Assembly (NCBI GenBank): GCA_963824605.1
Contig: CAWGPZ010000006.1
Span: forward strand, 72,673 to 136,672
Length of the DNA stretch: 64,000 bases
Source of the DNA: an uncultured Actinomycetota bacterium
GTDB taxonomy: Bacteria; Actinomycetota; Actinomycetes; JAHEKZ01
Direction of reading: 5' to 3'
Shown here: positions 37,987 through 55,069 of the stretch, piece after piece
Numbering within the stretch: the first letter of the stretch is position 1
Layout: every line of letters begins with the position of its first letter
The notes under the pieces: model-generated
Seen by the model: the letters and a program-made list of their open reading frames with translations, nothing else
The model's database searches: none
Told to the model about the DNA's origin: nothing
Program-made: the position numbers and the translations under genes

Positions 37987-38955
37987 TCAGCCGACTGAGG
38001 CCTTCTTCGTCTCCTCGATGATCGCGGGAAGAACCTTGCTGACGTCGCCGATGATGGCGTAGTCGGCGTAGCCCATGATCGCGGCTTCGGGGTCGGTGTT
38101 GATGACGATCATCGTCTTGGAGTTACGGCACCCGGCGATGTGCTGCGTGGCTCCGCTGATGCCGCAGGCGATGTAGAGGTCGGGCGCGATCTTGGTGCCC
38201 GTCTGGCCCACCTGCTCGATGTGCGGACGCCAGCCGTTGCCGGTGACGACGCGCGAGCAGCCGATCGTGCCGCCGAGCAGCTCGGCAAGCTCTTCCAGCG
38301 GTGCGAAGCCCTCGGCGCTGCCGACTCCCCGTCCGCCGGCCACGACCACCTTGGCGTCGGCCAGCGAGACGCCTGACGACTCGTCGGTGGCCTCGGCCTG
38401 CTTGGCCACGACCAGCAGATCGGCGTCGGCCAGCTCGGGAGTGAACTCGGCGACCTCACCGGCGCCGGAGCCGCCAGGTTCGGCGGCCACCGTGTGCGGC
38501 ACGAGCGTTACGAGCGCGGGTGCGCCGTGCAGGTTCGCCTCTTCGATGAGGCTGCCACCCCAGCGTGCGCGCACCACCTGCGTGGGCGAGCCCGGCGTCA
38601 CCTTGACGCAGTCGGCTGCCACCGGCAGGTCGGTGAGCGCGCCCAGGTGAGCCATCACCTCGTTGCCGCGTGGAGAGCCGGCCGCGAGGACCACCGATGC
38701 ACCGGTCCGAGACGCCACCTCGGACGCCGCGCGCGCTGCGGCAACTGGGGCGTAGCTGGTGAACACATCGTGCACAGCGACATGCACCGTGGCCACGCCT
38801 TGCGCACCAAGCGCAGCCGCGACGCCGGCGTCGCCGACGACGAGCGCCTCCAGTGGTTCACCGGTGGACGCCGCGAGCTCGCGCCCGTACGTCACCGTCT
38901 GCAACGAAGCCTCGTCGATCTCGCCATTCTCGTGGTCGACCAGTACCAGCACCAT
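37987..38955 (-). CDS. etfA: Electron transfer flavoprotein subunit alpha
   Basis: 322-aa ORF with the C-terminal FAD-binding region GGRGVGSAEGF..IACGISGATQHIAG. Confidence 0.9.
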   Translation of the reverse strand: MVLVLVDHENGEIDEASLQTVTYGRELAASTGEPLEALVVGDAGVAAALGAQGVATVHVAVHDVFTSYAPVAAARAASEVASRTGASVVLAAGSPRGNEVMAHLGALTDLPVAADCVKVTPGSPTQVVRARWGGSLIEEANLHGAPALVTLVPHTVAAEPGGSGAGEVAEFTPELADADLLVVAKQAEATDESSGVSLADAKVVVAGGRGVGSAEGFAPLEELAELLGGTIGCSRVVTGNGWRPHIEQVGQTGTKIAPDLYIACGISGATQHIAGCRNSKTMIVINTDPEAAIMGYADYAIIGDVSKVLPAIIEETKKASVG

Positions 38956-38956
38956 G

Positions 38957-39712
38957 TCAGATCACTCCGATCTGCTTGAAGATCTCAACGACGGCGGGAG
39001 CAGCATCGGGCCCGTTGCCCAGCACCTGCGCCTGCTTCGCCTTCATCGCCGGAACCTCGAGGCGGGTCTTCTCGAGCTTTGGCTCTGGTCGCTCGGGGTT
39101 CAACCGCTCGATCGGCTTCTTCTTGGCGCGGATGCGTCCTGGCACCGATGGGTACCGCGGAATGTTGAGCCCGTCGAGCACCGTCACCACCGCCGGCAGC
39201 GGTACCTCATACAGCTCGCGACCGGTCTTCACCGGACGCTCGAAGGTCGCCTTGCCGTCGGCGATCGTGATGCCCTTCACCCCGGTGGCGATCGGACGTC
39301 CGAGCTTGTGCGCGACGCGGATACCCACCTGGTAGCCGCTGGCGTCGGCCGACTCGTTGCCCATGATGATGAGGTCGAAGTCGGTCTCGTCGGCAGTGAT
39401 GGCATCGGCGATCGCGGACGCGGTGCCCTGCGGGTCCCACTCCTGCCCGTCGGTCTCGATCAGGATTCCGCGGTCGGCACCGATCGCCATCTGCTCGCGG
39501 ATCTGCTCCTCGGCGTCCGGAGGGCCGAGCGTCAGCACCGTGACGCTGCCGCCCTCCTTCTCGGCGATACGAACCGCCTCTTCGACGGCCACCTCTTCGT
39601 GGGGGCTGATCGTGAAGCCGAGCTTGGCCGACTCGATGTCGAGACCGTCCTCGGTGATCGTGAACTTGCCCCCGGAGAGGGGGACGCGTTTGATGCAGAC
39701 CAAGACATCCAT
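38957..39712 (-). CDS. etfB: Electron transfer flavoprotein subunit beta
   Basis: 251-aa ORF starting MDVLVCIKRVP.. with AEEQIREQMAIGADRGIL. It lies immediately upstream of etfA. Confidence 0.9.
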   Translation of the reverse strand: MDVLVCIKRVPLSGGKFTITEDGLDIESAKLGFTISPHEEVAVEEAVRIAEKEGGSVTVLTLGPPDAEEQIREQMAIGADRGILIETDGQEWDPQGTASAIADAITADETDFDLIIMGNESADASGYQVGIRVAHKLGRPIATGVKGITIADGKATFERPVKTGRELYEVPLPAVVTVLDGLNIPRYPSVPGRIRAKKKPIERLNPERPEPKLEKTRLEVPAMKAKQAQVLGNGPDAAPAVVEIFKQIGVI

Positions 39713-42231
39713 CAGGAGAGAATCCGCTCGTTCTTGGGGTCGAATAGGGGAGTGGCGCCGGCGACGGCGACGGTGACCGGGTAGTGGTCGCCGAGGTACT
39801 CGACGATCAGCTTGGTGCCCTCGACGGCGTACTCCGGCGGCAGGTAGCTCATGAGCACGTGCTTGCCGACGGACGGCGCTGAGCCGGCGCTGGTGACGAA
39901 CGACCGGCGTCCGTGCGCATCAGTGATCGGCCCCTTGTCGAGCGTGAGGATCGGCTCCTTGCCCATCATGTAGCGCTTTTCGCCGGTGCTGCTGGTGTGG
40001 TCGTCGACGGTCAGCGAGCACAGCGTGGCCACGGGGTCTTCGCTGCGGTGCTTGAGGTGCGACGCCTTGCCGACGAAGTCGGCCTCCTTGACCTTGGGCG
40101 GTGCCATACCGGCCTCGACGACGTTGAACTCGGTCTCGAGCTCTGTGCCGAAGGCTCGGTAGCCCTTCTCGATGCGGCCGGTCGTGCCGTAGACACCGAT
40201 GCCGACGGGGATCAGCCCGTGCTCCTGGCCGGCTTCCCACAGCGCATCCCACAGCTGCGCGCCCTGCTCCATCGGGACGTAGAGCTCCCAGCCGAGGTCT
40301 CCGACGTAGGAGATGCGGGACGCCAGCACCTTCAGCGAGCCGATCTCGATCGACTTGCAGGTGCCGAACTTGAACCCTTCGTGCGAGACGTCGTCGCGAG
40401 TGATCGACTCGAGGATCTGGCGAGCATTCGGACCCCAGATGCCGAGCGTGGTGAGCGCCGACGTCAGATCGGTGATCTGTGCCGTGCCGTCTTCTGGAAG
40501 GTTGTCGCGGAACCACTTGAGGTCGGCCATGCCGTGTGCGCCACCGGTGACGACGCGGTAGTGGTCATGGGCGAGACGCATGACGGTGAGGTCAGACTTG
40601 AAGCCACCGTTGTCCGACAGCACCGGGGTGTAGACGACGCGACCGATGGGAACATCCATCTGACGCATGCAGACGCGCTGCACCGTGTCGAGCGCACCGG
40701 GGCCCTGGATGTCGAACTCGACGAACGCGGTGAGGTCGACGAGGCCGGCCGTCTCGCGCATCTGCAGGTGCTCAGCATTGATGATCGGCGACCACCAGCG
40801 CGACTCCCACTCCGCCGTACGCGGCATGACGGCGTCACCGAACTTCTCGACCAGGCCCGCGTTGGTCTCGTACCAGAAGGGACGCTCCCAGCCGGCGGTC
40901 TCGTAGAACTCCGCGCCGAGCGCCTTCTGACGCTCGTAGTACGGCGACAGGCGCACGTTGCGGTTGGACGCCCACTGCTCGTTCGGGTGCACGATGCCGT
41001 AGGTCTTGTTGAAGCCCTCGGCGGTGCGGTCCTTGATGTTCTTGCGGGTCTTCTGGTGGTCGTAGAAGCGGGCGATGTCGGACGACTGCAGGTCGATCTC
41101 GGACTCGCCGCGCACCATCCACTCGGACACGGCCTTGCCGATACCGGGGCCTTCCTTGATCCAGACGGCGGAGACCGACCAGAGGTTCTTGACCTCGGGC
41201 GTCTCGCCGAGCAGCGGCAGGCCATCAGGCGTGAGCGACAGCAGGCCGTTGATCGCGTACTTCTGACCAACGGTCTCGTCGCCGACGATCTCTGGCATCA
41301 GCTCGAGGGCGTGCTCGTACTGCAGCTCGAAGTCTTCAGCGGTGAACGGGAACTCGGTCGGTGACAGCTGTGCCTCTTCGACCGAGGGAAGCTCTTCGGG
41401 GTCGTGCAGGATCGGGCGGTGGGCGTACGACCCGATCTCAAGGCCGTTGCCGTGCTGGCGCTCGTACATGTTGGTGTCCATGTCGCGCACGATCGGGTGC
41501 TCGATGTCGCCCTTGGCGTCGGCGAAGCGTGGAACCGGACCGACGTCGATCATCTGGTGCACGGCCGGTGTCAACGGAATGTTCGCGCCGGCCATCTTGG
41601 CCAGACGCGGTCCCCAGAGGCCCGTCGCGATGACGACGTACTCGGCCTCGATGGTGCCCTTGTCGGTCTCGACGGCGGTGATCTGCCCGTCGTTGACGAC
41701 CATGTCGGTGACCTCGGTGTTGGCGAAGGTCTGGAGCGCGCCCATCTCTTGCGCCCTCTCGCGCATGATCGTGCCCGCGCGCAGCGAGTCGACGACGCCG
41801 ACGCCGGGGGTGTAGAAGCCGCCGAGGATGACGTCCGGGTCCATGTAGGGGACGAGCTCAATGCACTCGGCGGGCGTGAGCATCTTGCAGCCGTCGATGC
41901 CGAATGACTTGGCCGACTGCATGCGTCGCCACAGCTCCTGCATGCGCTCCTCGGTGCGAGCAACCTCGATGCCGCCGCACTCGGTGAAGACGCCCATCTC
42001 CTGGTACTGGTGCACGCTGTCGAACGTGAGCAGCGCCATCTCCTTGGAGTGGTCCACCGGGAAGATGAAGTTGGACGCGTGCCCTGTCGAACCACCCGGG
42101 TTCGGCAGCGGGCCCTTGTCGATCTGCACCAGGTCGGTCCAGCCGAGCCGGGCGAGGTGGTACACCATCGCGTTGCCAACGATCCCGGCACCGATGATGA
42201 CGGCCTTGGCTCGTGAGGGGAGGGTGCTCAT
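39712..42231 (-). CDS. Dimethylglycine (or sarcosine) dehydrogenase/oxidase-type enzyme: FAD DAO domain fused to GcvT folate-binding aminomethyltransferase domain
   Basis: 839-aa ORF with the N-terminal AVIIGAGIVGNAMVYHLARLG. The C-terminal half is GcvT-like (ETAGLVDLTAF..YVGDLGWELY). Its stop and the etfB start share nucleotide 39712. Confidence 0.8.
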   Translation of the reverse strand: MSTLPSRAKAVIIGAGIVGNAMVYHLARLGWTDLVQIDKGPLPNPGGSTGHASNFIFPVDHSKEMALLTFDSVHQYQEMGVFTECGGIEVARTEERMQELWRRMQSAKSFGIDGCKMLTPAECIELVPYMDPDVILGGFYTPGVGVVDSLRAGTIMRERAQEMGALQTFANTEVTDMVVNDGQITAVETDKGTIEAEYVVIATGLWGPRLAKMAGANIPLTPAVHQMIDVGPVPRFADAKGDIEHPIVRDMDTNMYERQHGNGLEIGSYAHRPILHDPEELPSVEEAQLSPTEFPFTAEDFELQYEHALELMPEIVGDETVGQKYAINGLLSLTPDGLPLLGETPEVKNLWSVSAVWIKEGPGIGKAVSEWMVRGESEIDLQSSDIARFYDHQKTRKNIKDRTAEGFNKTYGIVHPNEQWASNRNVRLSPYYERQKALGAEFYETAGWERPFWYETNAGLVEKFGDAVMPRTAEWESRWWSPIINAEHLQMRETAGLVDLTAFVEFDIQGPGALDTVQRVCMRQMDVPIGRVVYTPVLSDNGGFKSDLTVMRLAHDHYRVVTGGAHGMADLKWFRDNLPEDGTAQITDLTSALTTLGIWGPNARQILESITRDDVSHEGFKFGTCKSIEIGSLKVLASRISYVGDLGWELYVPMEQGAQLWDALWEAGQEHGLIPVGIGVYGTTGRIEKGYRAFGTELETEFNVVEAGMAPPKVKEADFVGKASHLKHRSEDPVATLCSLTVDDHTSSTGEKRYMMGKEPILTLDKGPITDAHGRRSFVTSAGSAPSVGKHVLMSYLPPEYAVEGTKLIVEYLGDHYPVTVAVAGATPLFDPKNERILS

Positions 42232-42279
42232 GTCGGCGTCCCTTTCGTGGTTCTCTTCGGTTGCGGTGGACAGGTCTGC

Positions 42280-42942
42280 TTACAGCGACCGGCGGATCGA
42301 CCCTTCGAATCCGTCGACGTGGGTTTGCATGGCACTAGCGGCGCGGTCGGCGTCGCCGTCTCGGATGGCCTCGAGGATCGCGCGGTGCTCAAGGACAGCG
42401 TCCTCGAGGTGGCTCACCTTGTCGAGTGCCAGGAACCAGATACGCAGTGCGTGCATGTACTGCGCATCGAGTGCCGACTCGAGGAAGGCGTTGTGCGCCG
42501 CGTGATAGACGAAGCGGTGAATGCGCTGGTCGATCTCGATGAGTCGACGTCCCGCAGGCTTGACACTGACGGCGGCCAGCTCGTCGAAGAGGGCCTCCAT
42601 CTCGACGCGGTCGCCGTCAGTCAGGCGCTCGGCGGCCAAGCGAGCGGCGAAGGGCTCAAGGACGCAGCGCACCTCGGACAGCGACGCCAGGTCACGCGCG
42701 TCAGCCGGGGCGACGAACATGCCGCGACGTGGGTAGACCTCGACCAGATGGGCCTGGGCGAGTGCTCTGAGCGCTTCGCGCACCGGCGTGCGGCCGAGCC
42801 CGAGCCGATCCATGAGCTCGCGCTCGTCGACGAGGCTGCCTGGGGGGAGCTCGAGGGTGACGATCAGCTCGCGCACGGCGTAGTACGCCTGCTCGGACTG
42901 GGAGCGGGCGTCAGGCTGAAGGATCTCGACCGGTGAGGTCAC
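42280..42942 (-). CDS. GntR family (FadR/FCD subfamily) transcriptional regulator
   Basis: 220-aa ORF with a winged HTH (LPPGSLVDERELMDRLGLGRTPVREAL) and an FCD-type helical C-terminal domain. Confidence 0.85.
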   Translation of the reverse strand: MTSPVEILQPDARSQSEQAYYAVRELIVTLELPPGSLVDERELMDRLGLGRTPVREALRALAQAHLVEVYPRRGMFVAPADARDLASLSEVRCVLEPFAARLAAERLTDGDRVEMEALFDELAAVSVKPAGRRLIEIDQRIHRFVYHAAHNAFLESALDAQYMHALRIWFLALDKVSHLEDAVLEHRAILEAIRDGDADRAASAMQTHVDGFEGSIRRSL

Positions 42943-42993
42943 CTGAAAGATATATCAATCTCGCTGGCCTGTGTATACCCCTTGGCCAGACCG

Positions 42994-43008
42994 TTCCACA
43001 AGGTGGAA
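42994..43008. promoter_or_regulatory. Palindromic candidate operator TTCCAC-AAG-GTGGAA upstream of gntR-dmgdh-etfBA
   Basis: A perfect 6+6 palindrome lies about 50 bp upstream of the gntR start. The same half-sites recur in the iclR/mttB spacer. A nearby second inverted repeat is CTGGCC-N14-GGCCAG (42964..42989). Confidence 0.35.
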
Positions 43009-43051
43009 GCAGCGTCACTCGCCCGACATCCGGCCGGGGCGTCGCGGAAGG

Positions 43052-45121
43052 CTAGAACTCGGAGGCGACTGCCGCCGTTTCGGCCGCCTTCTTGGCGCGG
43101 TGCTGCTGGATCCACGCAGCACCCCACTCGTCGTGACCGAGCATCAGGTCGGCGCCCTTGACGGCCGTGACCACCTGCGGCGTGCGGGCGTCCATGATCG
43201 CGCTGGTCAGCCCAGCACGCATGGCCATGGGAATGAAGACCGCGTTCAGCGTGTGCCGGTCGGGCATGCCGAACGAGACGTTGGACGCGCCAAGGGTCAT
43301 GTTGACGCCGACCTGGTCGCGGATCATCGAGATCGCTTCCATGGTGCGGTCGGCGTGCAGCGAGTCGGCGCCGATCGGCATGGCCAGCGGGTCGATGACG
43401 ATGTCTTCGAGTGGGATGCCGTACTTCGATGTCGCGATGTCGACGAACCTCTTGACCAGCTCGACGCGGCGCACCGGGTCGATAGGGATCTCGGTCTCGT
43501 CGTTGGGCAGCGCGATGATCGCCGCGTTGTGGCGTTTGACCAGCGGCAGGATCAGCTCCATGCGGTCGTCCTCGACGGTGACGGAGTTGACCAGCGCCTT
43601 GCCCTCGTAGGCACCGAGTCCGGCCTCCAGCGCTTCGACCACGGACGAGTCGATGCAGAGCGGCAAGTCGGTGAGCGACTGCACGAGCGTGACGGCCTTT
43701 GCGAGCAGCTCGGCCTCATCGGTGAGCGGAACGCCCATGTTGACGTCGAGCACCATCGCGCCGCCGGCCACCTGCGCAGCAACGTCGGTCTCGACGGCCG
43801 AAAGATCTCCGGCCCGCAGCTGCTCTTGGAACGCCTTGCGCCCGGTGGGATTGATGCGCTCGCCGATGATGCAGAAAGGCTGGTCATCGCCGATGATGAC
43901 CTGCTTGCTGGCTGAGCTGAGAACCGTCTGCATGATGCTCCTGTTTCTCCATGTGTGCCGACGCTGACGCGATGGCACGTATCGTGCCGCGAACTTATCG
44001 ACGCGGCGAGTGGAAGGGTGTCTCGAGGGGCCCTCGTACTCGACGAGGGACAGTTCAGGGTCGGTGTCGTCGGGGGCTTCGAGGGTTTCTCCCTGCCAGC
44101 CCGCAGGGGTCCTGCGGTCGCGGCCGGTGAAGAGGTTCGTCCAGGACGCGTCGCCCTCCAGCTGGTTGTTCACCGGAGGGCGAAGATCGTGGATGTGCTC
44201 GCGCCACGACCGGGGGAGCAGCGGCAGCGTTCGGCTTCGCTCTTCTGCTTTGACCCAGACGCACCGCATCTCGGGGACGACCTCGCAGTGGCCGTTCTCG
44301 CGAACGCCGCCGCACGGACCGTTGCGCAGGGTCTTCGGGCAGGTCATCGGGCAGGTCATGCCGGTTGAGTGCAGGACACACTGCCCGCACATGCGGCAGT
44401 CCCACACCGGACCCTTGATGGCGTGCTCGATGACGGGCAGCAGCTTGGGCATGACGTCAGGCGCGGTGAGTGCGCGGCGGTTTTCGAGGAGTTCTTTGGC
44501 GCGGCGGACCGCGGTTGACGCGTCAGCTGCGTACCCATCAGCACCCACCGCGTCGGCGTACTCCTGAGTGACCGGAGCACCACCCACCATCACGATCACC
44601 TGATCGCGCACCCCAGCCTTCTCCAACGCATTGATGTTCGCCTTGAACATCGGCATCGTCGTGGTCAAGAACGCCGAGAACCCGACAATGTCCGGGGAAT
44701 GCTCCTCGATCGCGGCGACGAACTTCTCCGGAGCCACCTGCACCCCCAGATCAATCACCTCAAACCCCGCACCCTCCAACATGATGTTCACCAAGTTCTT
44801 CCCGATGTCATGCACATCACCCTTGACCGTGCCCATCAAGAACTTGCCCACCGTCTCAGCACCGGTCGCCGCCAACAACGGCCGCAACACCTCCAACGCC
44901 CCCGACATCGCCCGACCAGCGATCAACATCTCCGGCACGAAGAAGTCACCCCGCTCGAACCGGGCACCCACCTCCTCCAACGACGGAATCAACGCCTCGA
45001 ACAACAACGTCTCAGGACCCATCCCCAACCCAAGACCATCATTGGTCAACTCCAACACCGCCGGCGCATTACCCACCAACGTCTCGTCGAACAACCCCTT
45101 CAAAATCTCCTCAGGCGTCAT
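43052..45121 (-). CDS. Multidomain corrinoid methyl-transfer protein: B12-binding corrinoid module + Cys-rich MTHFR_C-like module + pterin-binding (methyl-THF:corrinoid methyltransferase, MtgA/AcsE-like) module
   Basis: 689-aa ORF. Residues 1-215 are cap helices plus a Rossmann fold with the DxHxxG motif (GDVHDIGKN) and GFSAFLTTT. Residues 225-335 read WDCRMCGQCV..GMTCPMTCPK..NGPCGG..HCEV. Residues 397-689 are pterin-binding: CIIGERINPTGRK, VLDVNMG and MTLGASNVSFGMP. Confidence 0.8.
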   Translation of the reverse strand: MTPEEILKGLFDETLVGNAPAVLELTNDGLGLGMGPETLLFEALIPSLEEVGARFERGDFFVPEMLIAGRAMSGALEVLRPLLAATGAETVGKFLMGTVKGDVHDIGKNLVNIMLEGAGFEVIDLGVQVAPEKFVAAIEEHSPDIVGFSAFLTTTMPMFKANINALEKAGVRDQVIVMVGGAPVTQEYADAVGADGYAADASTAVRRAKELLENRRALTAPDVMPKLLPVIEHAIKGPVWDCRMCGQCVLHSTGMTCPMTCPKTLRNGPCGGVRENGHCEVVPEMRCVWVKAEERSRTLPLLPRSWREHIHDLRPPVNNQLEGDASWTNLFTGRDRRTPAGWQGETLEAPDDTDPELSLVEYEGPSRHPSTRRVDKFAARYVPSRQRRHTWRNRSIMQTVLSSASKQVIIGDDQPFCIIGERINPTGRKAFQEQLRAGDLSAVETDVAAQVAGGAMVLDVNMGVPLTDEAELLAKAVTLVQSLTDLPLCIDSSVVEALEAGLGAYEGKALVNSVTVEDDRMELILPLVKRHNAAIIALPNDETEIPIDPVRRVELVKRFVDIATSKYGIPLEDIVIDPLAMPIGADSLHADRTMEAISMIRDQVGVNMTLGASNVSFGMPDRHTLNAVFIPMAMRAGLTSAIMDARTPQVVTAVKGADLMLGHDEWGAAWIQQHRAKKAAETAAVASEF

Positions 45122-45894
45122 GCCACGACCACCTTCCGGTTGCGGGGGCGTTCTGCTGGGTCGAGCGCGCGCGAGATGGCGCGGGTCTCAGTGATGATCA
45201 GACGCCCCACCCCGGCAATGCGGTTGCCGGTGAGGCGGACCGAGGGGCCGGTGACCGCAATGGCCGCCACCACAGTTCCTTCGGCGTCAGTGATGGGAGC
45301 AGCCACGGCCATCAGACCGGGCTCGAGCTCGTTGTCGGCAACGGCATATCCGCGACGCCGCACGCCCTCGAGGTCGGCCTCGAGGCGTTCGCGTGTCGTG
45401 ATCGTTCGGTCGGTACGTCGATCCAGACGTCCACGGGGCATCTGAACGGCGCCGTAGGCAAGGAACACCTTGCCGAGGGCCGAGCAGTGGAACGGGACGT
45501 CGCGTCCGACCCAGTTGGTGGCACCGAGAAGGAACCGGGAGTCGACCTGAGCGATCTGGTCGACCGCGACGGGGCCGGGAACCGCAAGGTTGACCGTCTC
45601 GCCCGTGAGCTCGCCGAGACGAGCCAGGTGCGGCTGGGCCAGCCGAAGCAGTGCGTCAGAACGCCCCGATCCCGCGTACCGAGCGAGCACCGGGCCCGGT
45701 CGAACCGCCGAGTCGCTGCCGCGTCGCACAAGCCCGTGACGCTCGAGGCTCGTGAGGATGCGGGACGCCGTGCTCTTGGGAAGCTCAGCGGTGGCTGCCA
45801 GCTCAGCGAAAGGCACAGGGTGATCGGCTTGGAGGACGGTGACCAGCAGGGTCGACGCCCGGTCGACGGCCTGCGTACCGGTGGGAGGAGCCAT
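45118..45894 (-). CDS. IclR family transcriptional regulator
   Basis: 258-aa ORF with an HTH (FAELAATAELPKSTASRILTSLERHGLV) and an IclR effector domain. Its stop overlaps the start of the corrinoid gene (ATGA). Confidence 0.85.
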   Translation of the reverse strand: MAPPTGTQAVDRASTLLVTVLQADHPVPFAELAATAELPKSTASRILTSLERHGLVRRGSDSAVRPGPVLARYAGSGRSDALLRLAQPHLARLGELTGETVNLAVPGPVAVDQIAQVDSRFLLGATNWVGRDVPFHCSALGKVFLAYGAVQMPRGRLDRRTDRTITTRERLEADLEGVRRRGYAVADNELEPGLMAVAAPITDAEGTVVAAIAVTGPSVRLTGNRIAGVGRLIITETRAISRALDPAERPRNRKVVVA

Positions 45895-46089: not shown

Positions 46090-47530
46090 ATGTTCGTCAA
46101 CCGCATGCCGCGTTACGAGGTCCTGTCCGAGGACTCGATGGCCACCTTGGATCGCGGATGGCGACGCATCGTCAGTGAGATCGGCGTCGAGTTCATGAAG
46201 CCCGAGGCGCTCGACCTCTTTCGCGAGGCTGGTCAGAAGGTCGAGGGGGACAACGTCTTCTTCGACCCCGAGTGGGTGCTGGCCCAGGTGGCGAAGGCTC
46301 CGCGCGAGTTCGACATCCAGGCCCGCAACCCCGAGAACAACGTCCACATCGGTGGCGACCACATGGTGTTCTCCAGCGTCTACGGACCACCGTTCGTGCG
46401 CGAAGGCGCGGTGCGCCGCGAGGGCACCTTTGACGACTACCGCAACTTCGCCAAGCTGGCCCAGTCGTTCAGCGCCATCGACAGCGTCGGGGGAGTGGTC
46501 GCCGAGCCGAACGACACGCCGCTCGACTCCAGGCACCTCGACATGCTCTACGCGACGCTGACCCTCACCGACAAGATGTACATGGGAAACGTGGTCAGCG
46601 GGGTGAACGCCCGCGACACGATCGCCATGGGAGAGATCGTCTTCGGTGGCCGAGAGGCGCTCGAGCAGACGCCGGCCAGCATCTCGCTGATCAACTGCAA
46701 CTCACCCTTGCGGTGGGACGACCGCATGTTGGACGCGCAGTTCGAGTACTCCGCTGCCTTGCAGCCGGTTGTGCTGACTCCGTTCCTGCTGATGGGTGCC
46801 ATGTCGCCGGTCACGATCCCTTCCGCCCTGGCACAGCAGATCGCTGAGGCTCTGACGGGTATCGCGCTCTCACAGCTGATCCGGCCAGGGTCGCCGGTCG
46901 TGTTCGGATCGTTCCTCTCGAACATCGACATGCAGTCGGGCTCCCCGCAGTTCGGAACTCCCGAGTCGGCCATGGGCTTGCTGTGCACCGGTCAGATCGC
47001 CCGCCACTTCGGACTCCCCTTCCGCGGTGGGGGTGGCCTGAACTCGTCGCAGATGCCCGATGCGCAGGCGGCGTGGGAGGCGCTCATGACGATGATGCCC
47101 ACGTTCTTGTCGGGCACGAACTTCGTGATGCACACCGCCGGCTGGCTCGAAGGCGGGCTCGTCTCGTGCTTCGAGAAGTACGTCATGGACGTCCAGGTGC
47201 TCGAGATCCTGCAGAAGGAGTTCACGCCGCTCGAGATCACCGACGAAGACCTCGCCTTCGACGCCCACCAAGAAGTCGGGACACGGCGGGCACTTCCTCG
47301 GCGCCATGCACACGATGGAACGCTTCCGCACCTGCTTCTACCGGCCGTGGCTGTCGTCGTCGGACAACTTCGAGCGGTGGAACAAGAACGGCGCCAAAGA
47401 CACAGCGGCCAGGGCGAACGAGATCTACCACCAGAAGATCGACGAGTACGAGCAGCCGCCACTCGACGAGGCCATCCGCCAAGAGCTCGAGGACTACGTC
47501 ATCAGGCGACGCGCCGAGCTCGGCGACTAG
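46090..47530 (+). pseudogene. MttB-superfamily (non-pyrrolysine) quaternary-amine:corrinoid methyltransferase, probable glycine betaine type, with 1-nt frame disruption at about 47281
   Basis: ORF 46090..47595 is MttB-like up to ..DLAFDAHQEVG and then becomes Arg-rich nonsense. ORF 47306..47530 (MHTMERFRTCFYRPWLSSSDNFERW..) supplies the conserved C-terminus. Removing one base in GGGACACGG restores EVGHGGHFLGAMHTMERF. There is no in-frame TAG. Confidence 0.85.
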
Positions 47531-47581: not shown

Positions 47582-47598
47582 TGACGAACTGCTGACGG

Positions 47599-48576
47599 TC
47601 AGCCGCCGTCGATCCAGGCAGCTACCTTGTCGGGGTTGTCGTCGATCCACTGCTGAGCGGCGTCCTCACCTGACATGCCGTCGTTCGCGATGTAGAGCGC
47701 CACCTGGTTCTGGTCGTCGTTCGTCCAGGTGAAGTTCGACACCAGATCGGCAGCCGGGCTGCCGGACGCCATGAAGTCGGCGCTCGCGATCTTGTCGAGG
47801 ATGTACTCGGGGTAGTCGCACGCGACGGTTGCCGGGTCGGCGTCGCAGCCTTCCTCCCACGCCGGGAGGTCGACCTTGACGAGCGGCACCTCGGAGAGGA
47901 ACCACTGTGGCTCGTAGAAGTAGCCGATGTAGAACTCCTTGTTCTCCTCGGCGTTGCGGAAGCCCTGGATCAGTGCGGCTTCGCTTCCGGCGTAGACGAC
48001 CTCGAAGTCGAGCTTGAGGTTCTCGACCAGAGCCTCGTCGTTGGTGACGAACGACGGGTCGCCGTCCCACAGCGTGCCCTTGTCGCCGGTCTCGGCAGTG
48101 GAGAAGTCACTCGCGTACTTGTTGAGGTTCTCCCAGTTGGTGATGTCGGGGTTCTCCTCGGCGAGCCACGGTGGCACGTACCAGCCGATGACTCCGACGT
48201 TTCCGTTGGGTCCGACGATGACCGCCGTCTCTTGCTTCTCGACGTACTCCTTCTTGAGGTCGTCGTGGCCCCAGTTCTCGATCACGACGTCAACCTTGCC
48301 AGAGCCGAAGCCCTGCCAGGCGATCTCTTCCTTGAGCTTCAGGTAGTTGGTGTTGCACCCCAGCTCCTGTGCGGCCACCTCGCCGACCACGTAGGCAGAT
48401 GCCTCGTAGCCGACCCATGGGTTGATCGCCATGTTGAAGTCACCGCAGTCGGCACCGCTGGCACTGCCACCGCTGTCAGCTTCTTCGATGTCGCCGCCGC
48501 CACAGGCGGCGAGCACCAGGCTCGCGGCGGCAGCCAAGGCGGCGGCGCGTCCGGCCCGTCTTCTCGTGATTCGCAC
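47599..48576 (-). CDS. Glycine betaine/choline ABC transporter substrate-binding lipoprotein (ProX/OpuAC type)
   Basis: Internal GTG of ORF 47599..48792, preceded by AAGAGGAG. It has a lipobox (LVLAAC) and an OpuAC fold with aromatic-cage-type residues (NPWVGYEAS, IENWGH, GWYVPPW). Confidence 0.85.
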   Translation of the reverse strand: MRITRRRAGRAAALAAAASLVLAACGGGDIEEADSGGSASGADCGDFNMAINPWVGYEASAYVVGEVAAQELGCNTNYLKLKEEIAWQGFGSGKVDVVIENWGHDDLKKEYVEKQETAVIVGPNGNVGVIGWYVPPWLAEENPDITNWENLNKYASDFSTAETGDKGTLWDGDPSFVTNDEALVENLKLDFEVVYAGSEAALIQGFRNAEENKEFYIGYFYEPQWFLSEVPLVKVDLPAWEEGCDADPATVACDYPEYILDKIASADFMASGSPAADLVSNFTWTNDDQNQVALYIANDGMSGEDAAQQWIDDNPDKVAAWIDGG

Positions 48577-48616
48577 TCGAACTCCTCTTATTCGGGCCGC
48601 AGGGGTGCGGCGTGGG

Positions 48617-50797
48617 TCAGGCACTTTCAGCGCGTCCGTAGCGCGCTGCGGTATGGACGGTGATGCGGTCGAGCATGATCCCGAGCGCCGTGATGGCGAT
48701 CCCGGCGGCGAGGCCCTTCCCGAAGTCTTCTCTCTGTGAGAAGCCGTTGATGACGAGGAAACCGAGTCCGCCGCCACCCACCAGGCCGCCAATGACGACC
48801 ATGGACAACACGAAGAGCAGGCCCTGGTTCGCTGACAGCACGATCGAGCCTTTCGACATCGGCAGCTGCACCTTGCGGATCATCTGCCAGCGACTGGTGC
48901 CGAGCGCCTGTGCGGCCTCCACGGTGGGCCCTGACACACTGCGGACGCCGTCGGCAGTGATCTTGATCGCCACCGGTGAGGCATAGAGAACCGCCGCGAT
49001 GATGGCCAGGAACCGGCCGGCGGGAAACAGAGCGAGGGCCGGCACGAGGTAGACCAAGGAGGGCAGAGTCTGCAGCCCATCGAGGAAGGGACGCACCATC
49101 GCGTCCACCCGGCGGCTGCGACCCATCCACACCCCGATCACGATGCCGAAGATCATGACGAAGAGCGTGGCCACCAGTGTCATCGTGAGCGTGACCATCG
49201 AGTCGTTCCAGAGGCCGACGGCAAAGATCAGTGAAAGACAGGACGCGGCCGGGATCAGGGCGCCGCCACCACCGACAGCAGCCGAGCCGATGAGCAGCGC
49301 CAGGACGACACCCCAGTAGATGACCCAGGACATGTCCAATGGGCTGTTTGCCCAGTAGCCCGACATCAAGACTGCGACCGCGCCCAGCGCCACGGCCGTT
49401 GCCAGTCGGGGGGTGGGGGCTTTGCCGGCACCGCCGAGCAGGATCGCGATCGCCAGGATGCCGAGTGACACGAGCCACCAGGGCGATTCGACGAACCAGG
49501 CATCCAGACCCAGGGGTGGGTTCAGGAAGACCTCGGTGAACGCGTCGCTGAGCCAACGGGTGAACGAGCCGATGGAACTGGCGATGGAGTCGGTGACGTC
49601 GTTCATCCAGTTCGCGATGTTCCGTCCCAGATCGCTCTCGGGGAACACGTTCCATCGCAACTGGTTGTGCGAGATGACCGCCACCACGACAACCACGGCA
49701 GCGGAGATGCCGAGAATGAGGCGTCGGCGCTTCTCGTCGACGTTCCGTCGCGAGGTTGCCTCCGAACGCTCTCCGGCGGCTGCAGTGGCCCGGTCGAGCA
49801 TGATCGCCATGAATACGATGCACATGCCGCTGACGAACGCGATTCCGACGTTCAGGACGCTCAGTGCCTCGATGATCGGGATACCGAGGCCAGGACCGGC
49901 GATGAATGCGGCGATGATGGCCATCGAGAGTGCGGCCATGATGGTCTGGTTCAGGCCCACGATGATCGTGCGCCTGGCCATGGGCAGCTGCACCTTGGTC
50001 ATCAACTGCGACGACGTCGACCCGAGGGCGGTCGTCGCCTCGATGGTGCTGGGCGAGACGGTGCTCAGCCCGTAGGCCGAGATGCGGATCAGCGGCGGAA
50101 GGGCGTAGATCAAGGTGGCAACGACTGCGCCAGGGTTGCCGATTCCGAAGATGAGCACGAGCGGTCCGAGGTAGGCGAACGACGGCATCGTCTGCATCGT
50201 GTCGAGCACGGGCGTCAGCGCGGAGGTCACACGTTTGCTACGCGACATCCAGATGCCGGTCGGGAGACCGATGAGTACGCAGATCACCACCGAGACACCG
50301 GTGATGATCAGGGTGTCGATGCTCTTCTCCCAGTAGCCGAGCCAGCCGAACGAGAGCATGACGGCCAAGGCCAAGATCGCAATGCGCAGGCCGGAGAACG
50401 CGTAGGCGACCCAGACGGCGAGCGCGACGACGCCGGCCCAGCCCACCTGGGCGACACCTTGGGGTCGGCTCGAGTCGGAGACGAAGATGTTCTGCAGCTG
50501 GGTGACCGTCCAGTCGAGAGCCTCGCTGATCCAGTCGATGGGCAGGAAGATCGGGTTGCCGTTGAACTTCGCCGTCTCGATCGTGTTGCGCAGCTCGTTG
50601 AGCCACTCCTGGAACGCCGTCAGCTGTGAGACGGGGAGGTCTTGAGTGCCCTTGCCCTGGAAGATCACCCCGAGCACGACCCAGACAGTAACGACGACAC
50701 CAAGGGCGATCCAGCGCAGTCGGCTGCCGCTCTCGTCCTCAGGTGGCGGGGGAGTCTCCTCGACGGGGTGCTCCACCTCGGTGAGCTCGATGGTCAC
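48617..50797 (-). CDS. Glycine betaine/proline ABC transporter permease, tandem-duplicated (two BPD_transp_1 domains)
   Basis: 726-aa membrane ORF with two EAA-loop-type segments ([23 protein letters not shown] and [23 protein letters not shown]). Confidence 0.85.
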
Positions 50798-51867
50798 GAG
50801 GGCTTCTCCTCGGCCACGATCACCCGCAGGATGTCGTCCTGGTCGACGATGCCGAGAAGCTCTCCGTTGTCGACGACTTTGACGGGGTCGACGGCGTCGA
50901 TGACGCGACGCGCAGCGTCACGCACGATCGTGTCCGGCGCCATCTCGGGGCCGGTAAGGGCCTCGTCGGGTCGAGGTGGCCGCATCACCCAGGCAAGCGT
51001 CAAGACGTGCGAGCGTGGCACCTCGCTGACGAAGTCGCGCACGTAGTCGTCGGCGGGGGTGGCAACGACCTCGGCCGGCGTCCCCATCTGCACCAGTGCT
51101 CCGTCGCGCATGATCAGAATGCGATCACCCAGCTTCAGGGCCTCAGCGAGGTCGTGGGTGATGAAGACCATGGTCTTGCCGACCTCGTGGTGCAGCCGAA
51201 TGACCTCGTTCTGCATGTCTCGACGAATGAGCGGGTCGAGCGCAGAGAACGGCTCATCGAAGAGCAGGATCGACGGGTCGACCGCGAGGGCCCGGGCAAG
51301 GCCCACTCGCTGCTGCATCCCGCCGGAGAGCTGGTCGGGATAGGCGTTCTCGTTGCCAGACAGCCCGACGAGGTCGACCATCTCCTGGGCGCGGTCGCGG
51401 CGGTCGGTCTTGGACGCGCCTCGCACTTCCAGGCCGTACGCCACGTTGTCTATGACCTTGCGGTGCGGCAGCAAACCAAAGTGCTGGAAGACCATCGAGA
51501 CGTGATGGCGCCGCAGCTCACGCAGCCTGGCGTCCGACATGGCCACGACGTCTTCGCCGTCGATCATGACCTGGCCCGCCGTGGGTTCGATCAGCCTGGT
51601 GAGGCAACGGACGAGAGTCGACTTGCCCGAGCCGGACAGACCCATGACGACGAACACCTCACCAGGAGCAACGTCGAAGCTAACGTCACGAACGGCGGCC
51701 GTACACCCAGTCTTGGCCAACAGCTCGGAGCGCGAGAGGTCTGCGTCAGGCGACCCGACGACCTTGTCCGCCCGTGGACCAAAGACCTTCCAGAGATCGG
51801 TCACAGTGAGGGCGGATTGCCCGTTCGTGGACGCCGTCTCGCCGACGTCGTCGACCGTGGCGGTCAT
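50794..51867 (-). CDS. Glycine betaine/proline ABC transporter ATP-binding protein (ProV/OpuAA) with C-terminal CBS pair
   Basis: 357-aa ORF with Walker A (GLSGSGKST), the signature (LSGGMQQRV), Walker B ([11 protein letters not shown]) and a CBS-like tail. Confidence 0.9.
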
Positions 51868-53565
51868 GAGGATGCTCCTTCATTGCGGGGGTCACCAGGT
51901 GGGTAGAGCGGGGAGCCTTCGTCGTAGCGGTAGAAGGGTGCCTCGGAGGGGGCAAGCGGAGTGTTGCCGATGATCAGGTCGGCAGCCTTCTCGGCGAGCA
52001 TCATCACCGGGGCGTAGATGTTTCCGTTGGTCACGTACGGGAAGGAGCTCGCATCGACGACGCGCAGACCCTCAATGTCATGGACGTTCATCGTTGCGGG
52101 ATCGAGTGACTGCGTCGTCATCGACGCCCATCTTCGCGGTGCAGGAGGGGTGCAACGCCGTTTCGGCATCGTTGCGCACCCACTCGAGGATCTCGTCGTC
52201 CGTCTCGACGGATGGGCCGGGGGAGAGCTCGCCGGCGTTGAAGGGCTCGAAAGCAGGCTGCGTCAGGATGTCGCGTGCCACGTGAACGGCCTCGGTCCAC
52301 TCGCGACGGTCCTGGTCGGTCGACAGGTAGTTGAACTGCATCGAGGGGTGCTCGAGCGGGTCGGTGGAACGGATCTTCACCCACCCTCGCGCGTCGGAGT
52401 ACATGGGGCCGATGTGCACCTGGTAGCCGTGGCCCTCGGTGGGCGACGTGCCGTCGTACCTGATCGCAATCGGCAGGAAGTGGAACATCAGGTTGGGGTA
52501 CGAGACGTCGTCGTTGCTGCGCGCGAAGCCGCCACCTTCGAAGTGGTTGGTGGCTCCGAGACCCTTGCGCTGGAAGAGCCACTGCGCACCGATGCCAGGG
52601 CGCTTCCACCACGCCAGCCCCGGAGCGATTGAGACGGGAAGCTTGCTGGCGTACTGGATGTAGACCTCGAGGTGGTCCTGCAGGTTCGCGCCAACACCCG
52701 GTAGGTCTGCGACCACGTCGATTCCGAGCGACTGCAGGTGAGCGGCATCGCCGACACCTGACAGCTGCATGAGCTGCGGGGTATTGATGGCTCCACCGCA
52801 CAGGATGACCTCGCCGGCCTGCACCGAGCGCTTCATGCGTCCGGCGCGGAGATACTCGACGCCGACTGCTCGCTTGCCGTCGAAGACCACTTTCGTGGCG
52901 TGAGCGAGCGTCTCGACGTCGAGGTTCTTGCGATCCATGACGGGGTGCAAGTAGGCGCGTGCGGCGCTCAACCGGCGCCCACGATGGATGTTGCGGTCGA
53001 ACTTGGCGAACCCCTCTTGGCGGTAGCCGTTCACATCGTCGGTCAGCGGGAAGCCGGCCTGTTGCGCCGCTTCGAAGAATGCCCCGAAGAGCGGGTTCTT
53101 GGCCGGCCCGCGCTCGAGAACCAGTGGACCGCTGCCGCCGCGCCACTCGTCGGCGCCGGCGAGGCAGTTCTCCATGCGCTTGAAATAGGGCAGGCAGTGG
53201 GCGAAGTCCCAGTTCTCCATACCCTTGTCGGCGCCCCAGCGTTCATAGTCCATGGGGTTTCCGCGCTGGAAGATCATGCCGTTGATGCTGCTGGAGCCCC
53301 CAAGAACCTTGCCGCGCGCGTGAAAGATGCGCCGATTGTTCATGTAGGGCTCTGGGTCGGTCTCGTAGCGCCAGTCGTAGAGTCGACTGCCGATCGGGAA
53401 GGGCAGCGCGGCCGGCATGTGGATGAACGGATCCCAGATGAAGTCGGGACGTCCGGCCTCCAGCACCAGCACCGAGGTGCCGGGGTCGGCACTCAACCGG
53501 TTGGCAAGGGCTGACCCGGCTGAGCCACCACCGACGATGACGATGTCGTAGCGGTCGTCGCTCAT
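51864..53565 (-). pseudogene. betA: Choline dehydrogenase (GMC oxidoreductase) with 1-nt frame disruption near 52105-52111
   Basis: [33 protein letters not shown] lies in ORF 52078..54021. The conserved C-terminus [29 protein letters not shown] lies in ORF 51864..52169, in another frame. Confidence 0.85.
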
Positions 53566-53596
53566 GCGGCGGCTCCGGGGTGTGAGGGACTGAGGG

Positions 53597-55069
53597 TCAT
53601 TTGGCGCCGAACCAGTGTTGGGGAGCCGGCGCGATGTTCCGCCAGATGTGCTTGGTCTCGCGGTACTCGGCCAGGCCGTGGTGGCCCAGCTCGCGCCCGA
53701 ACCCGGACTGCTTGTATCCACCCCACTCAGCCTGCGGCACGTACGGGTGGAAGTCGTTGATCCACACCGTGCCTGCGCGAAGACCTGCGGCCACCCGGTC
53801 TGCCTTGGCCGCATCCGACGTCCACACGGCACCGGCGAGCCCGTAGTCGGTGTCGTTGGCCAGGCGCAGCGCCTCGGCCTCGTCGGTGAAGGTCTCGACC
53901 GTGAGGACGGGACCGAAGGACTCTTCGCGCACCACCCGCATGTCGGGGGTGCAGCGGTCGAACACGGTGGGCAGGTAGTAGTAGCCGTCGGCCAGCTCCG
54001 CATCGTCCGGCCGACGCCCACCGCAGCGCAGTTCGGCGCCTTCGGCGACCCCCGCTGCGACGTACGCCTCGACTTTGGCTCGATGCCCCTCGGAGGTCAG
54101 AGGACCGGTCTCGGCCTCCTTGTCGAACGGCCCGCCGAGGCGGATTTCTTGGGCTCTTCGGACGACCTCGTCGACGAAGGCGTCATGGATCGACTCCTCG
54201 ATGAGCAGTCGGGCACCGGCGGAGCAGACCTGGCCGGAGTGCAGGAAGACCGCCGTCAGTGCCATGTCGAGTGCGGCGTCCCAGTCGGCGTCCGCGAAGA
54301 CGATGTTCGGGTTCTTGCCTCCGAGCTCGAGCGCCACCCGCTTCACGGTCGGGGCGGCCGACGCCATGATCAGGCGTCCGGTGACGAGCCCGCCGGTGAA
54401 CGACACGAGATCGACATCGGGATGCGACGAGAGCAGCGCTCCGACGTTTGGCCCCGTGCCCAGCACGAGGTTGGCAACACCGGCGGGCAGCCCGGCAGCC
54501 TCGAGCTCGCGCATGAGCAGGATGGCCGTGGAAGGGGTCAGCTCGCTGGGCTTGAGGACGAAGGTGTTTCCGGCGGCGAGAGCCGGCGCCACCTTCCACG
54601 ACGTTTGCAGGAGCGGGTAGTTCCAGGGCGTGATCAGCCCGCAGACCCCCACGGGCTCGTGCACGATGCGGCTCTGGACATCGGGTCGGTCGACGTCGAC
54701 GTCGCGATCGTCGTCCTCGGCCGCGAGCTTGGCGTAGTAGCGGAACACAGCCGTGACGTCGGCGAGGTCGTATTCAGCCTCGACCAGGCGTTTTCCGGTG
54801 TCGAGCGCCTCAGCGCGAGCGAACTCGTCGCGGTGTCGCTCAAGGGCGTCCGCCACTCGGTCGAGCAGCGCGCCGCGCTCGGCCGGAGGCGTCGAAGCCC
54901 ATGGCCCGTCATCGAACGCCGTGCGGGCGGCCTCGATCGCCGCCTCGGTGTCTTCGCTCGCGCCCTCATCGACAGTGGCGACCAGTGAGCCGTCCGCCGG
55001 ACAGCGAATCTCGCGCGTGTTGCCGTCACGCGCGCTGGTCCAGATTCCACCAATGAAGAAGTCGGGCAC
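53597..55069 (-). CDS. betB: Betaine aldehyde dehydrogenase (NAD-dependent aldehyde dehydrogenase family)
   Basis: 490-aa ORF with ALDH motifs (ELGGKNP and the catalytic Cys in GQVCSAG). The assignment to betaine aldehyde rests on context, upstream of betA and proVWX. Confidence 0.8.

Follow-up and report, generated by a model that had tools for sequence, protein, structure and literature searches.

Does a single open reading frame (ORF) in an actinobacterial genome encode a three-module enzyme for B12-dependent methyl transfer, or does it run through three ordinary genes? The question is raised by a 689-codon ORF at 43052-45121 on the minus strand of a 64,000-nucleotide stretch of DNA from an uncultured Actinomycetota bacterium, the whole of which is referred to here as the window. 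The ORF combines a corrinoid carrier (C), a Cys-rich MetV-like protein (V) and a pterin-binding methyltransferase (A). A preliminary description of the window had taken these for modules of one polypeptide, which together with a divergent MttB-family gene would form a compact two-polypeptide route from a quaternary amine through corrinoid to tetrahydrofolate (THF), and had remarked that such modules are normally separate proteins. The remark is borne out by related genomes and the single polypeptide is not: every relative examined has three genes, and the window ORF is continuous because of two single-base deletions that are seen in no relative. With a probability of about three in four, three ordinary neighbouring genes of a B12-dependent glycine betaine:THF methyl-transfer operon have been joined by two 1-nt deletions, most likely errors of consensus or assembly. 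A tri-modular enzyme is not supported; as a reading of the window's letters, the ORF is correct.

Modules of the Long ORF

The domain matches of the ORF are far above chance level, and Pfam confirmed all of the domain calls made earlier (B12-binding, B12-binding_2, an MTHFR_C-type module and Pterin_bind). B12-binding_2 covers amino acids (aa) 13-79 of the ORF (2e-13), B12-binding aa 93-205 (1.5e-30), DUF5981/“MTHFR C terminal” (PF12225) aa 232-299 (2.4e-23, 82 bits against a cut-off of 23) and Pterin_bind (PF00809) aa 420-642 (4e-27, 96 bits). Between the last two, aa 300-415 match no profile in Pfam or NCBIfam. The GC content of third codon positions (GC3), 0.8-0.97 over the ORF overall, goes down to 0.67-0.70 at aa 361-395. 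The ORF and its parts are as follows.

43052-45121, minus strand: the 689-codon ORF, ATG to TAG, uninterrupted as written
44457..45121, minus strand: corrinoid (B12) carrier gene, mtgC-like, with Pfam B12-binding_2 and B12-binding; 221 codons in relatives
43995..44452, minus strand, ATG at 44452: gene for the MetV-like Cys-rich small protein (DUF5981/PF12225, 82 bits)
43934..44030, minus strand: linker of the joined ORF (aa 365-396), made of the out-of-frame tail of the MetV-like gene and an intergenic spacer with a ribosome-binding site
43052..43933, minus strand: methyl-THF:corrinoid methyltransferase gene (MtgA/MtgD/MeTr-like pterin-binding barrel), with Pterin_bind and PRK07535

The corrinoid protein carries the His-on motif D102-V-H104-D-I-G107 (DxHxxG), and among known structures it matches PDB 1y80 (191 bits), 7xcn (146 bits) and also 4jgi. 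In NCBIfam, this N-terminal part of the ORF resembles the MtgC/MtbC corrinoid proteins under their cut-offs; it scores 197 against a required 370 bits with the glycine-betaine-specific MtgC model NF047996, and 157 against 310 with NF047995. The methyltransferase passes the cut-off of PRK07535 (NF005719, methyl-THF:corrinoid methyltransferase; 305 against 259 bits), and its best PDB matches are 2yck, 1f6y (MeTr) and 4o0q (Desulfitobacterium hafniense MtgA, 126 bits). In V, eight cysteines (C19, C22, C25, C34, C38, C47, C56 and C64) are invariant among 55 homologs. The best 120 database homologs of V are all stand-alone PF12225 proteins of 120-164 aa, none with a B12 or pterin domain, and in 24 related loci the V gene adjoins metF, directly upstream of it. 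Judged by its profile match and this gene context, V is a MetV-type small protein. By sequence, no relative of V is found in the PDB, and an AlphaFold2 model built with 55 sequences has a mean predicted local confidence (pLDDT) of 54, with the Cys-rich core below 50.

Two Single-Base Deletions at the Gene Junctions

The comparison drew on one genome per GTDB species and gave 80 loci in three size classes.

Large class, 24 loci: corrinoid protein 221 aa, MetV-like protein ~126 aa, MetF ~300 aa, pterin methyltransferase ~291 aa, RamA ~625-650 aa, DUF1638
Small class, 52 loci, including the isolate genomes of Asanoa and Nocardioides: corrinoid protein 221 aa, pterin methyltransferase ~290 aa, RamA, DUF1638
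Window-like class, L001 (83% identity) and L002 (96% identity): corrinoid protein 221 aa, MetV-like protein 152 aa, pterin methyltransferase 291-296 aa, in different frames; MetF and RamA not nearby

The sizes of the separate proteins are thus steady across relatives (221, ~125-152 and ~290 aa), and the gene assignments are backed by Pfam in a Planktophila metagenome-assembled genome (MAG). The ORF maps of the GTDB loci show fused junctions in 0 of 27 cases for C-V, 0 of 24 for V-A and 0 of 52 for C-A. No gene fusion at these junctions was found in 79 related genome loci, four metagenome contigs and the ENA contig L086, which has the gene order of the window with called genes of 220, 152 and 291 aa. 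The genes are separate in the Asanoa and Nocardioides isolates too, and in L002, whose proteins are 100% (C), 99% (V) and 97% (A) identical to those of the window. The full corrinoid-Cys-rich-pterin architecture did not occur among the 5.8 billion proteins searched, and look-ups of the exact proteins gave no record of the 689-aa product or of the dimethylglycine-dehydrogenase-like protein of the window. Judged by these searches, the domain architecture is unique to the window sequence.

At the first junction, the window, aligned with L002, L001 and seven other relatives (nine in all), lacks one base between 44466 and 44465, in ...CTSACTCGCGTCTGA. The missing base lies 7 nt ahead of the TGA of the corrinoid gene and outside any homopolymer run. 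With its loss the TGA is skipped and reading continues to 44452, where the MetV-like gene has its ATG. The ancestral TGA persists out of frame at 44459-44457; the 221-codon corrinoid ORF has the same end point in nearly all of the 80 loci. At the second junction, one base is missing between 44031 and 44030, in GAGGG(A/G)CC, at the border of a G run and a C run and 33 nt ahead of the TAA of V, which likewise persists out of frame (43997-43995). The nearest V homologs are 152 aa long with a C-terminus ...SLVEYEGPLETPFH..R, and share the ending EYEGPLETPFH(S/P)xRR. Through the second deletion the TAA is skipped, and the EYEGPLETPFH end is replaced by unrelated residues that run through the spacer and the ribosome-binding site to the methyltransferase ATG. 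A scan of metagenome DNA that allowed 0 or 1 base at this junction recovered four JGI contigs of the window's clade; 4/4 have the extra base and three separate ORFs. The extra base and the stop are thus present in these four contigs as well as in L001, L002 and L086. The combined DNA pattern of both junctions had no match in metagenomes.

A product of the joined ORF would have the peptides ...ENRRALTAPDVMPK... and ...EYEGPSRHPSTR... across its two junctions. The linker peptide, PSRHPSTRRVDKFAARYVPSRQRRHTWRNRSI, has no Pfam match and no counterpart in any relative examined; judged from this comparison and from its out-of-frame and intergenic origin, it is an artefact. Directly after the dip in GC3, protein A has its own ATG at 43933 (M397 of the joined ORF, MQTVLSSASK...), preceded by AGGAG at 43942-43938, and the pterin methyltransferases of relatives begin at the same methionine (M[HEQ]TVL...) in a separate ORF of ~290 aa. 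The preliminary description had itself named a split into two or three genes, seen on resequencing, among the findings that would overturn it, and on comparative evidence this is what the relatives have.

Databases contain many apparent fusions of these genes (corrinoid with pterin, IclR with corrinoid, pterin with RamA, MTHFR with pterin) that are single-member ENA predictions. The entries concerned are P0001, P0009, P0012, P0026, P0041, P0046 and P0051-P0054, with locus L085. Several of the ENA entries that combine modules hold long Arg/Pro-rich stretches typical of out-of-frame translation, and in L085 the “C+A fusion” P0001 stands on the same contig beside a RamA gene that is split in two. 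These features suggest that the database fusions of these genes are likely run-through artefacts of long-read MAGs.

Further Frameshifts and Selective Constraint

The two junctions are not the only places where the reading frame of the window departs from that of its relatives. Pfam continuity checks on ~30 genes were used to find frameshifts, a GC3 phase plot alone being too noisy for the purpose. Three more were recognized, each absent from L001 and L002 wherever these are comparable.

47281, plus strand: extra A in mttB, absent from L001 and L002; the last 83 codons are out of frame
52108, minus strand: extra C in the betA-like GMC oxidoreductase gene, not seen in L001 or L002; the GMC_oxred_C match breaks at profile position 105, its two parts lying in different frames
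~2235, plus strand: frameshift in an ABC ATPase gene (2018-2720), at five consecutive G; the ABC_tran match falls into two parts, positions 2-48 and 52-136

The ratio of non-synonymous to synonymous change (dN/dS; Nei-Gojobori, window against L002, frames restored) is 0.017 for C, 0.056 for V and 0.054 for A; ahead of the frameshifts it is 0.009 for mttB and 0.037 for betA, and in flanking genes 0.026-0.042. Beyond the frameshifts, the betA tail differs from L002 by 16 synonymous and 2 non-synonymous changes and the mttB tail by 7 and 4. The summed ratio of non-synonymous to synonymous differences (Nd/Sd) comes to 0.137 in the locus, against 0.131 in its flanks. Constraint is not relaxed, which leaves two options for the frameshifts: error, or a very recent origin. 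The closest relatives, L001 and L002, are Nanopore-only MAGs polished with Medaka (PMC12313526). In ~5 kb of transporter genes (~48000-50500 in window coordinates), L001 differs from both the window and L002 by more than 25 single-base indels, an indication of how many errors some related assemblies contain. Errors of assembly are the most probable cause, given the three further frameshifts in conserved genes, the unrelaxed dN/dS and the Nanopore-only origin of the nearest relatives' MAGs.

Mixing of the corrinoid gene C with a near-identical paralogue (C') in the consensus was considered as a cause of the first deletion. The homology of C and C' stops at 44469, and the deletion, at 44466, falls exactly at this limit; this cause is plausible, not demonstrable.

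MetF, RamA and the Role of the Cys-Rich Protein

The preliminary description, having seen no RamA-type reductive activase nearby, had asked how oxidized cobalamin is rescued and had named the Cys-rich module as a candidate for that role. The observation holds: tblastn detects neither RamA nor an MTHFR barrel in the 64 kb (best match E=0.68), and RamA and MetF are missing from the L001 and L002 loci also. The proposal is not supported: V is of the MetV type that precedes MetF in 24 relatives, and most relatives have RamA with DUF1638 after the methyltransferase gene. RamA, DUF1638 and MetF follow directly in most of them. L003, L007 and the isolate genomes have RamA immediately downstream, and it is also found on L032, a second contig of L002's MAG, which carries a second locus.

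10001-14041 of contig L032: corrinoid gene, MetF (305 aa), RamA (615 aa) and DUF1638 (205 aa), in a row

The corrinoid gene of L032 is 98% identical to that of the window and near-identical in DNA to L002's own, its RamA has Fer2 and RACo domains, and the locus is without MetV and the pterin methyltransferase. From this complementary gene content, it appears that an ancestral operon was duplicated and then reciprocally reduced in the window's clade. With RamA and its companions at a second locus in the MAG of the closest relative, the Cys-rich module need not replace RamA, and the reactivation problem raised earlier probably does not exist.

Just past the stop of the ORF, at 42972-43040 on the minus strand, there is a weak likeness to the ferredoxin-type N-terminus of RamA (PAG..DAAS..WNG.A; tblastn E=0.68, not significant). 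This is where ramA starts in relatives, and a RamA remnant, or deletion scar, was considered there; at E=0.68 it was not used as evidence.

The clade without an adjacent MetF comprises the window (43995-44040), L001, L002, L081-84, L086 and the proteins P0121-P0135, together with many 152-aa proteins from metagenomes. Its 152-aa V variants carry a conserved C-terminal extension, ...(S/A)LVEYEGPLETPFH..., that is missing from the 126-aa V encoded beside MetF. The clade keeps V between the corrinoid and methyltransferase genes, with the conserved EYEGPLETPFH motif at its C-terminus. It is a distant prospect that V acts in this clade on the corrinoid cycle, for instance as an electron relay to or from cobalt, and does not serve MetF alone, or that the C-V-A run-through of the window is a newly born fusion.

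Weighing the Explanations

Several properties of the locus speak against errors of consensus or assembly as the explanation. Four of the five frameshifts fall inside 9 kb (43-52.2 kb), with ~30 other surveyed genes intact, a clustering that a uniform error rate does not predict, and only about two of the five sites coincide with homopolymer runs. That random error should strike twice independently, each time bridging a gene junction, is improbable; it is equally improbable for mutation, and the ORF drew attention precisely for its length. The indels may also be real mutations. New fusions do arise by frameshifts that remove a stop codon, and both deletions may be real and recent, the strain making a functional C-V-A protein. 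Both indels fall only a few codons from the gene ends and spare all domains, neither is a clear homopolymer-length error, and the clustering is again unlike uniform error. Yet neither fusion occurs in at least 84 related loci, one of them a relative with 97-100% identical proteins, the second deletion destroys the conserved C-terminal motif of V, and the linker is out-of-frame and intergenic sequence that retains a ribosome-binding site and an ATG. The partner genes mttB and betA would moreover have to be inactive as well, except if errors had struck them and not the two junctions. We consider a functional fusion unlikely.

A somewhat weaker case can be made that all frameshifts are real and that the choline/betaine island is becoming a set of pseudogenes, the long ORF being a functionless by-product of decay. 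The grouping of four frameshifts among the betaine genes, one each in mttB and betA and one at either junction, fits this idea, as does the absence of MetF, RamA and DUF1638 from the locus. Against it, once the frames are restored dN/dS is as low as that of the flanks, also beyond the frameshifts, and there are no in-frame stops or larger lesions. The loss of MetF and RamA is common to the whole clade, whose other members have intact genes, and an unrelated ABC ATPase gene 40 kb off has the fifth frameshift. Decay of the island is doubtful for these reasons. Least credible of all, and close to dismissal, is an evolved two-polypeptide betaine-to-THF system with the Cys-rich module in place of RamA. 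The domain content of the ORF and the want of a RamA in the 64 kb are in its favour, but the comparative data contradict it: the architecture is confined to this one sequence, the Cys-rich module corresponds to the MetV-type partner of MetF in 24 relatives, and RamA and DUF1638 stand beside the operon in most relatives and at the second locus in the MAG of the closest one. Three separate genes joined by errors in the window sequence account best for these observations.

Neighbouring Genes

The genes around the operon are as follows.

37987-38955, minus strand: electron-transfer flavoprotein (ETF) alpha (Pfam ETF and ETF_alpha)
38957-39712, minus strand: ETF beta (Pfam ETF)
39712-42231, minus strand: dimethylglycine-dehydrogenase-like protein (DAO, FAO_M, GCV_T and GCV_T_C)
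42280-42942, minus strand: GntR/FCD regulator (Pfam GntR and FCD)
45118..45894, minus strand: IclR-family regulator (HTH_IclR and IclR_C), its stop overlapping the corrinoid ATG (ATGA)
46090..47530, plus strand: divergent non-pyrrolysine MttB-family gene, MtgB-like (MTTB 507 bits, profile positions 25-420 only)
47599..51867, minus strand: OpuA-type betaine/choline ABC transporter, with substrate-binding protein, tandem ProW-like permease and ProV ATPase (OpuAC, two BPD_transp_1, ABC_tran with CBS)
51864-53586, minus strand: betA-like GMC oxidoreductase, broken by the extra base at 52108
53597-55069, minus strand: betB-like aldehyde dehydrogenase (Aldedh 570 bits)

The region 37987..42942 is syntenic in L001, L002, L003 and L007. 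The position of the IclR gene is conserved as well, an upstream ORF of 250-310 aa ending at locus position 10004 in nearly all loci, and the ProV ATPase scores 363 bits with TIGR01186 (proV). The divergent MttB-family gene reported earlier is present from 46090 onward, though frameshifted at 47281, and the respiratory context is confirmed by ResA/CcdA/ResB/CcsB, NuoB and menaquinone-type genes in the window.

As written, mttB ends at 47595 with a nonsense tail, and translation in a third frame continues GHGGHFLG...ELGD*. The repaired protein has 479 aa without an internal stop, and aligns end-to-end with D. hafniense MtgB (PDB 2qne/9yce) at 397 bits, against 126 bits for the pyrrolysine-type MttB. 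MtgB binds glycine betaine through Y97, R312, H348 and F356 (PMC13080624). Three of these four contacts are conserved in the window protein (Y98, R312 and H348), position 356 being Gly with W352 nearby. Residues 348-356 of the product read HTAGWLEGG, and Gly at the F356 position with Trp four residues earlier is also seen in PDB 4yyc. The aerobic-type MtgB homologs may, judging from these residues, bind quaternary amines differently or prefer another substrate.

A Predicted Route from Betaine to Tetrahydrofolate

The route from a quaternary amine through corrinoid to THF that had been proposed for the window is well supported by this gene context (OpuA-type transporter, betA/betB-like genes, MtgB-like enzyme, dimethylglycine dehydrogenase and ETF). 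Its steps are predicted here from homology to the MtgBCA system of D. hafniense and the MtgBCD system of Ruegeria, together with gene context. The operon would have the order iclR, C, V and A, in separate and translationally independent genes. Glycine betaine would enter through the OpuA-type transporter or be formed from choline by BetA/BetB, and the MtgB-like enzyme would pass its methyl group to Co(I) on protein C, from which protein A would transfer it to THF. MetF, with V as its iron-sulphur (FeS) subunit, would then oxidize methyl-THF to methylene-THF, RamA and DUF1638 would re-reduce accidentally oxidized Co(II), and the dimethylglycine left over would be oxidized by the dimethylglycine-dehydrogenase-like enzyme, with electrons going to ETF. 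In the window's clade MetF, RamA and DUF1638 have left the operon.

In the Nanopelagicales-type loci of the large class (L007, 15347-17011), a formate-THF ligase gene is also in the cluster, convergent with the operon, which makes for a complete methyl-to-formate route at one locus. A literature search on this pathway in Nanopelagicales found no mention of Nanopelagicales. The presence of MetV with MetF in aerobic Actinomycetota raises the question of the electron acceptor for the oxidation of methyl-THF.

Relation to Known Systems

Genetic work has established an aerobic MtgBCD pathway with MetF2, RamA and DUF1638 in Ruegeria pomeroyi (Mausz et al. 2025, PMC12478193). The actinobacterial system has in common with it a non-pyrrolysine MttB-family enzyme, a separate cobalamin-binding protein and a separate methyl-THF methyltransferase (MtgB, MtgC and MtgD in Ruegeria), a MetF paralogue that oxidizes methyl-THF, RamA and DUF1638 for reactivation, co-located genes for the later demethylation steps, and an aerobic heterotrophic host. 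Unlike in Ruegeria, the host is an actinobacterium, the genes are packed into a single operon that begins with an IclR regulator, and in many of the actinobacterial versions MetF is preceded by a MetV-type FeS protein; none is mentioned for Ruegeria. In anaerobic D. hafniense, MtgB, MtgC and MtgA carry out glycine betaine:THF methyl transfer (PDB 2qne/9yce, 4o0q; PMC13080624). The alignment with MtgB is full-length, A matches MtgA (4o0q) and C matches the corrinoid proteins 1y80 and 4jgi, whereas the exchange of F356 for Gly with a Trp four residues upstream, the scores of C under the NCBIfam MtgC cut-offs and the respiring actinobacterial host set the window system apart. All in all, judged by homology and gene order, the operon behind the ORF belongs to the known MtgB/C/A(D), MetF and RamA system, as an ordinary actinobacterial example.

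MetV itself is known as the FeS/Zn small subunit of the type II (MetVF) methylene-THF reductases of acetogens (PMC8760232). V resembles it in the PF12225 domain, in its eight invariant cysteines and in the place of its gene immediately upstream of metF in the 24 related loci. It differs in that the actinobacterial V is shorter (~125-152 aa) and found in aerobes, where the enzyme presumably works in the oxidative direction, and in that MetF is not adjacent in the window's clade, whose V has a clade-specific conserved C-terminal tail. As to the fused form, cobalamin-dependent methionine synthase, MetH, is a natural fusion in which a single chain bears a pterin-binding barrel and a B12 domain of the His-on type, and parts of the ORF match MetH models. 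Unlike MetH, the ORF has the reverse domain order, lacks the Hcy and AdoMet domains and scores 274 against a MetH cut-off of 1011, and its continuity is not conserved.

Implications

If it were true, a RamA-free fusion of carrier, FeS protein and methyltransferase would be a notable new answer to the problem of cobalamin reactivation in aerobes; the evidence is against it. The case shows instead how single-base indels in long-read MAGs can mimic convincing “novel architectures”. The operon behind the ORF would extend the recently described aerobic B12-dependent demethylation of betaine to soil and freshwater Actinomycetota, commonly with a MetV-type FeS protein, and would be a modest addition to a known system.

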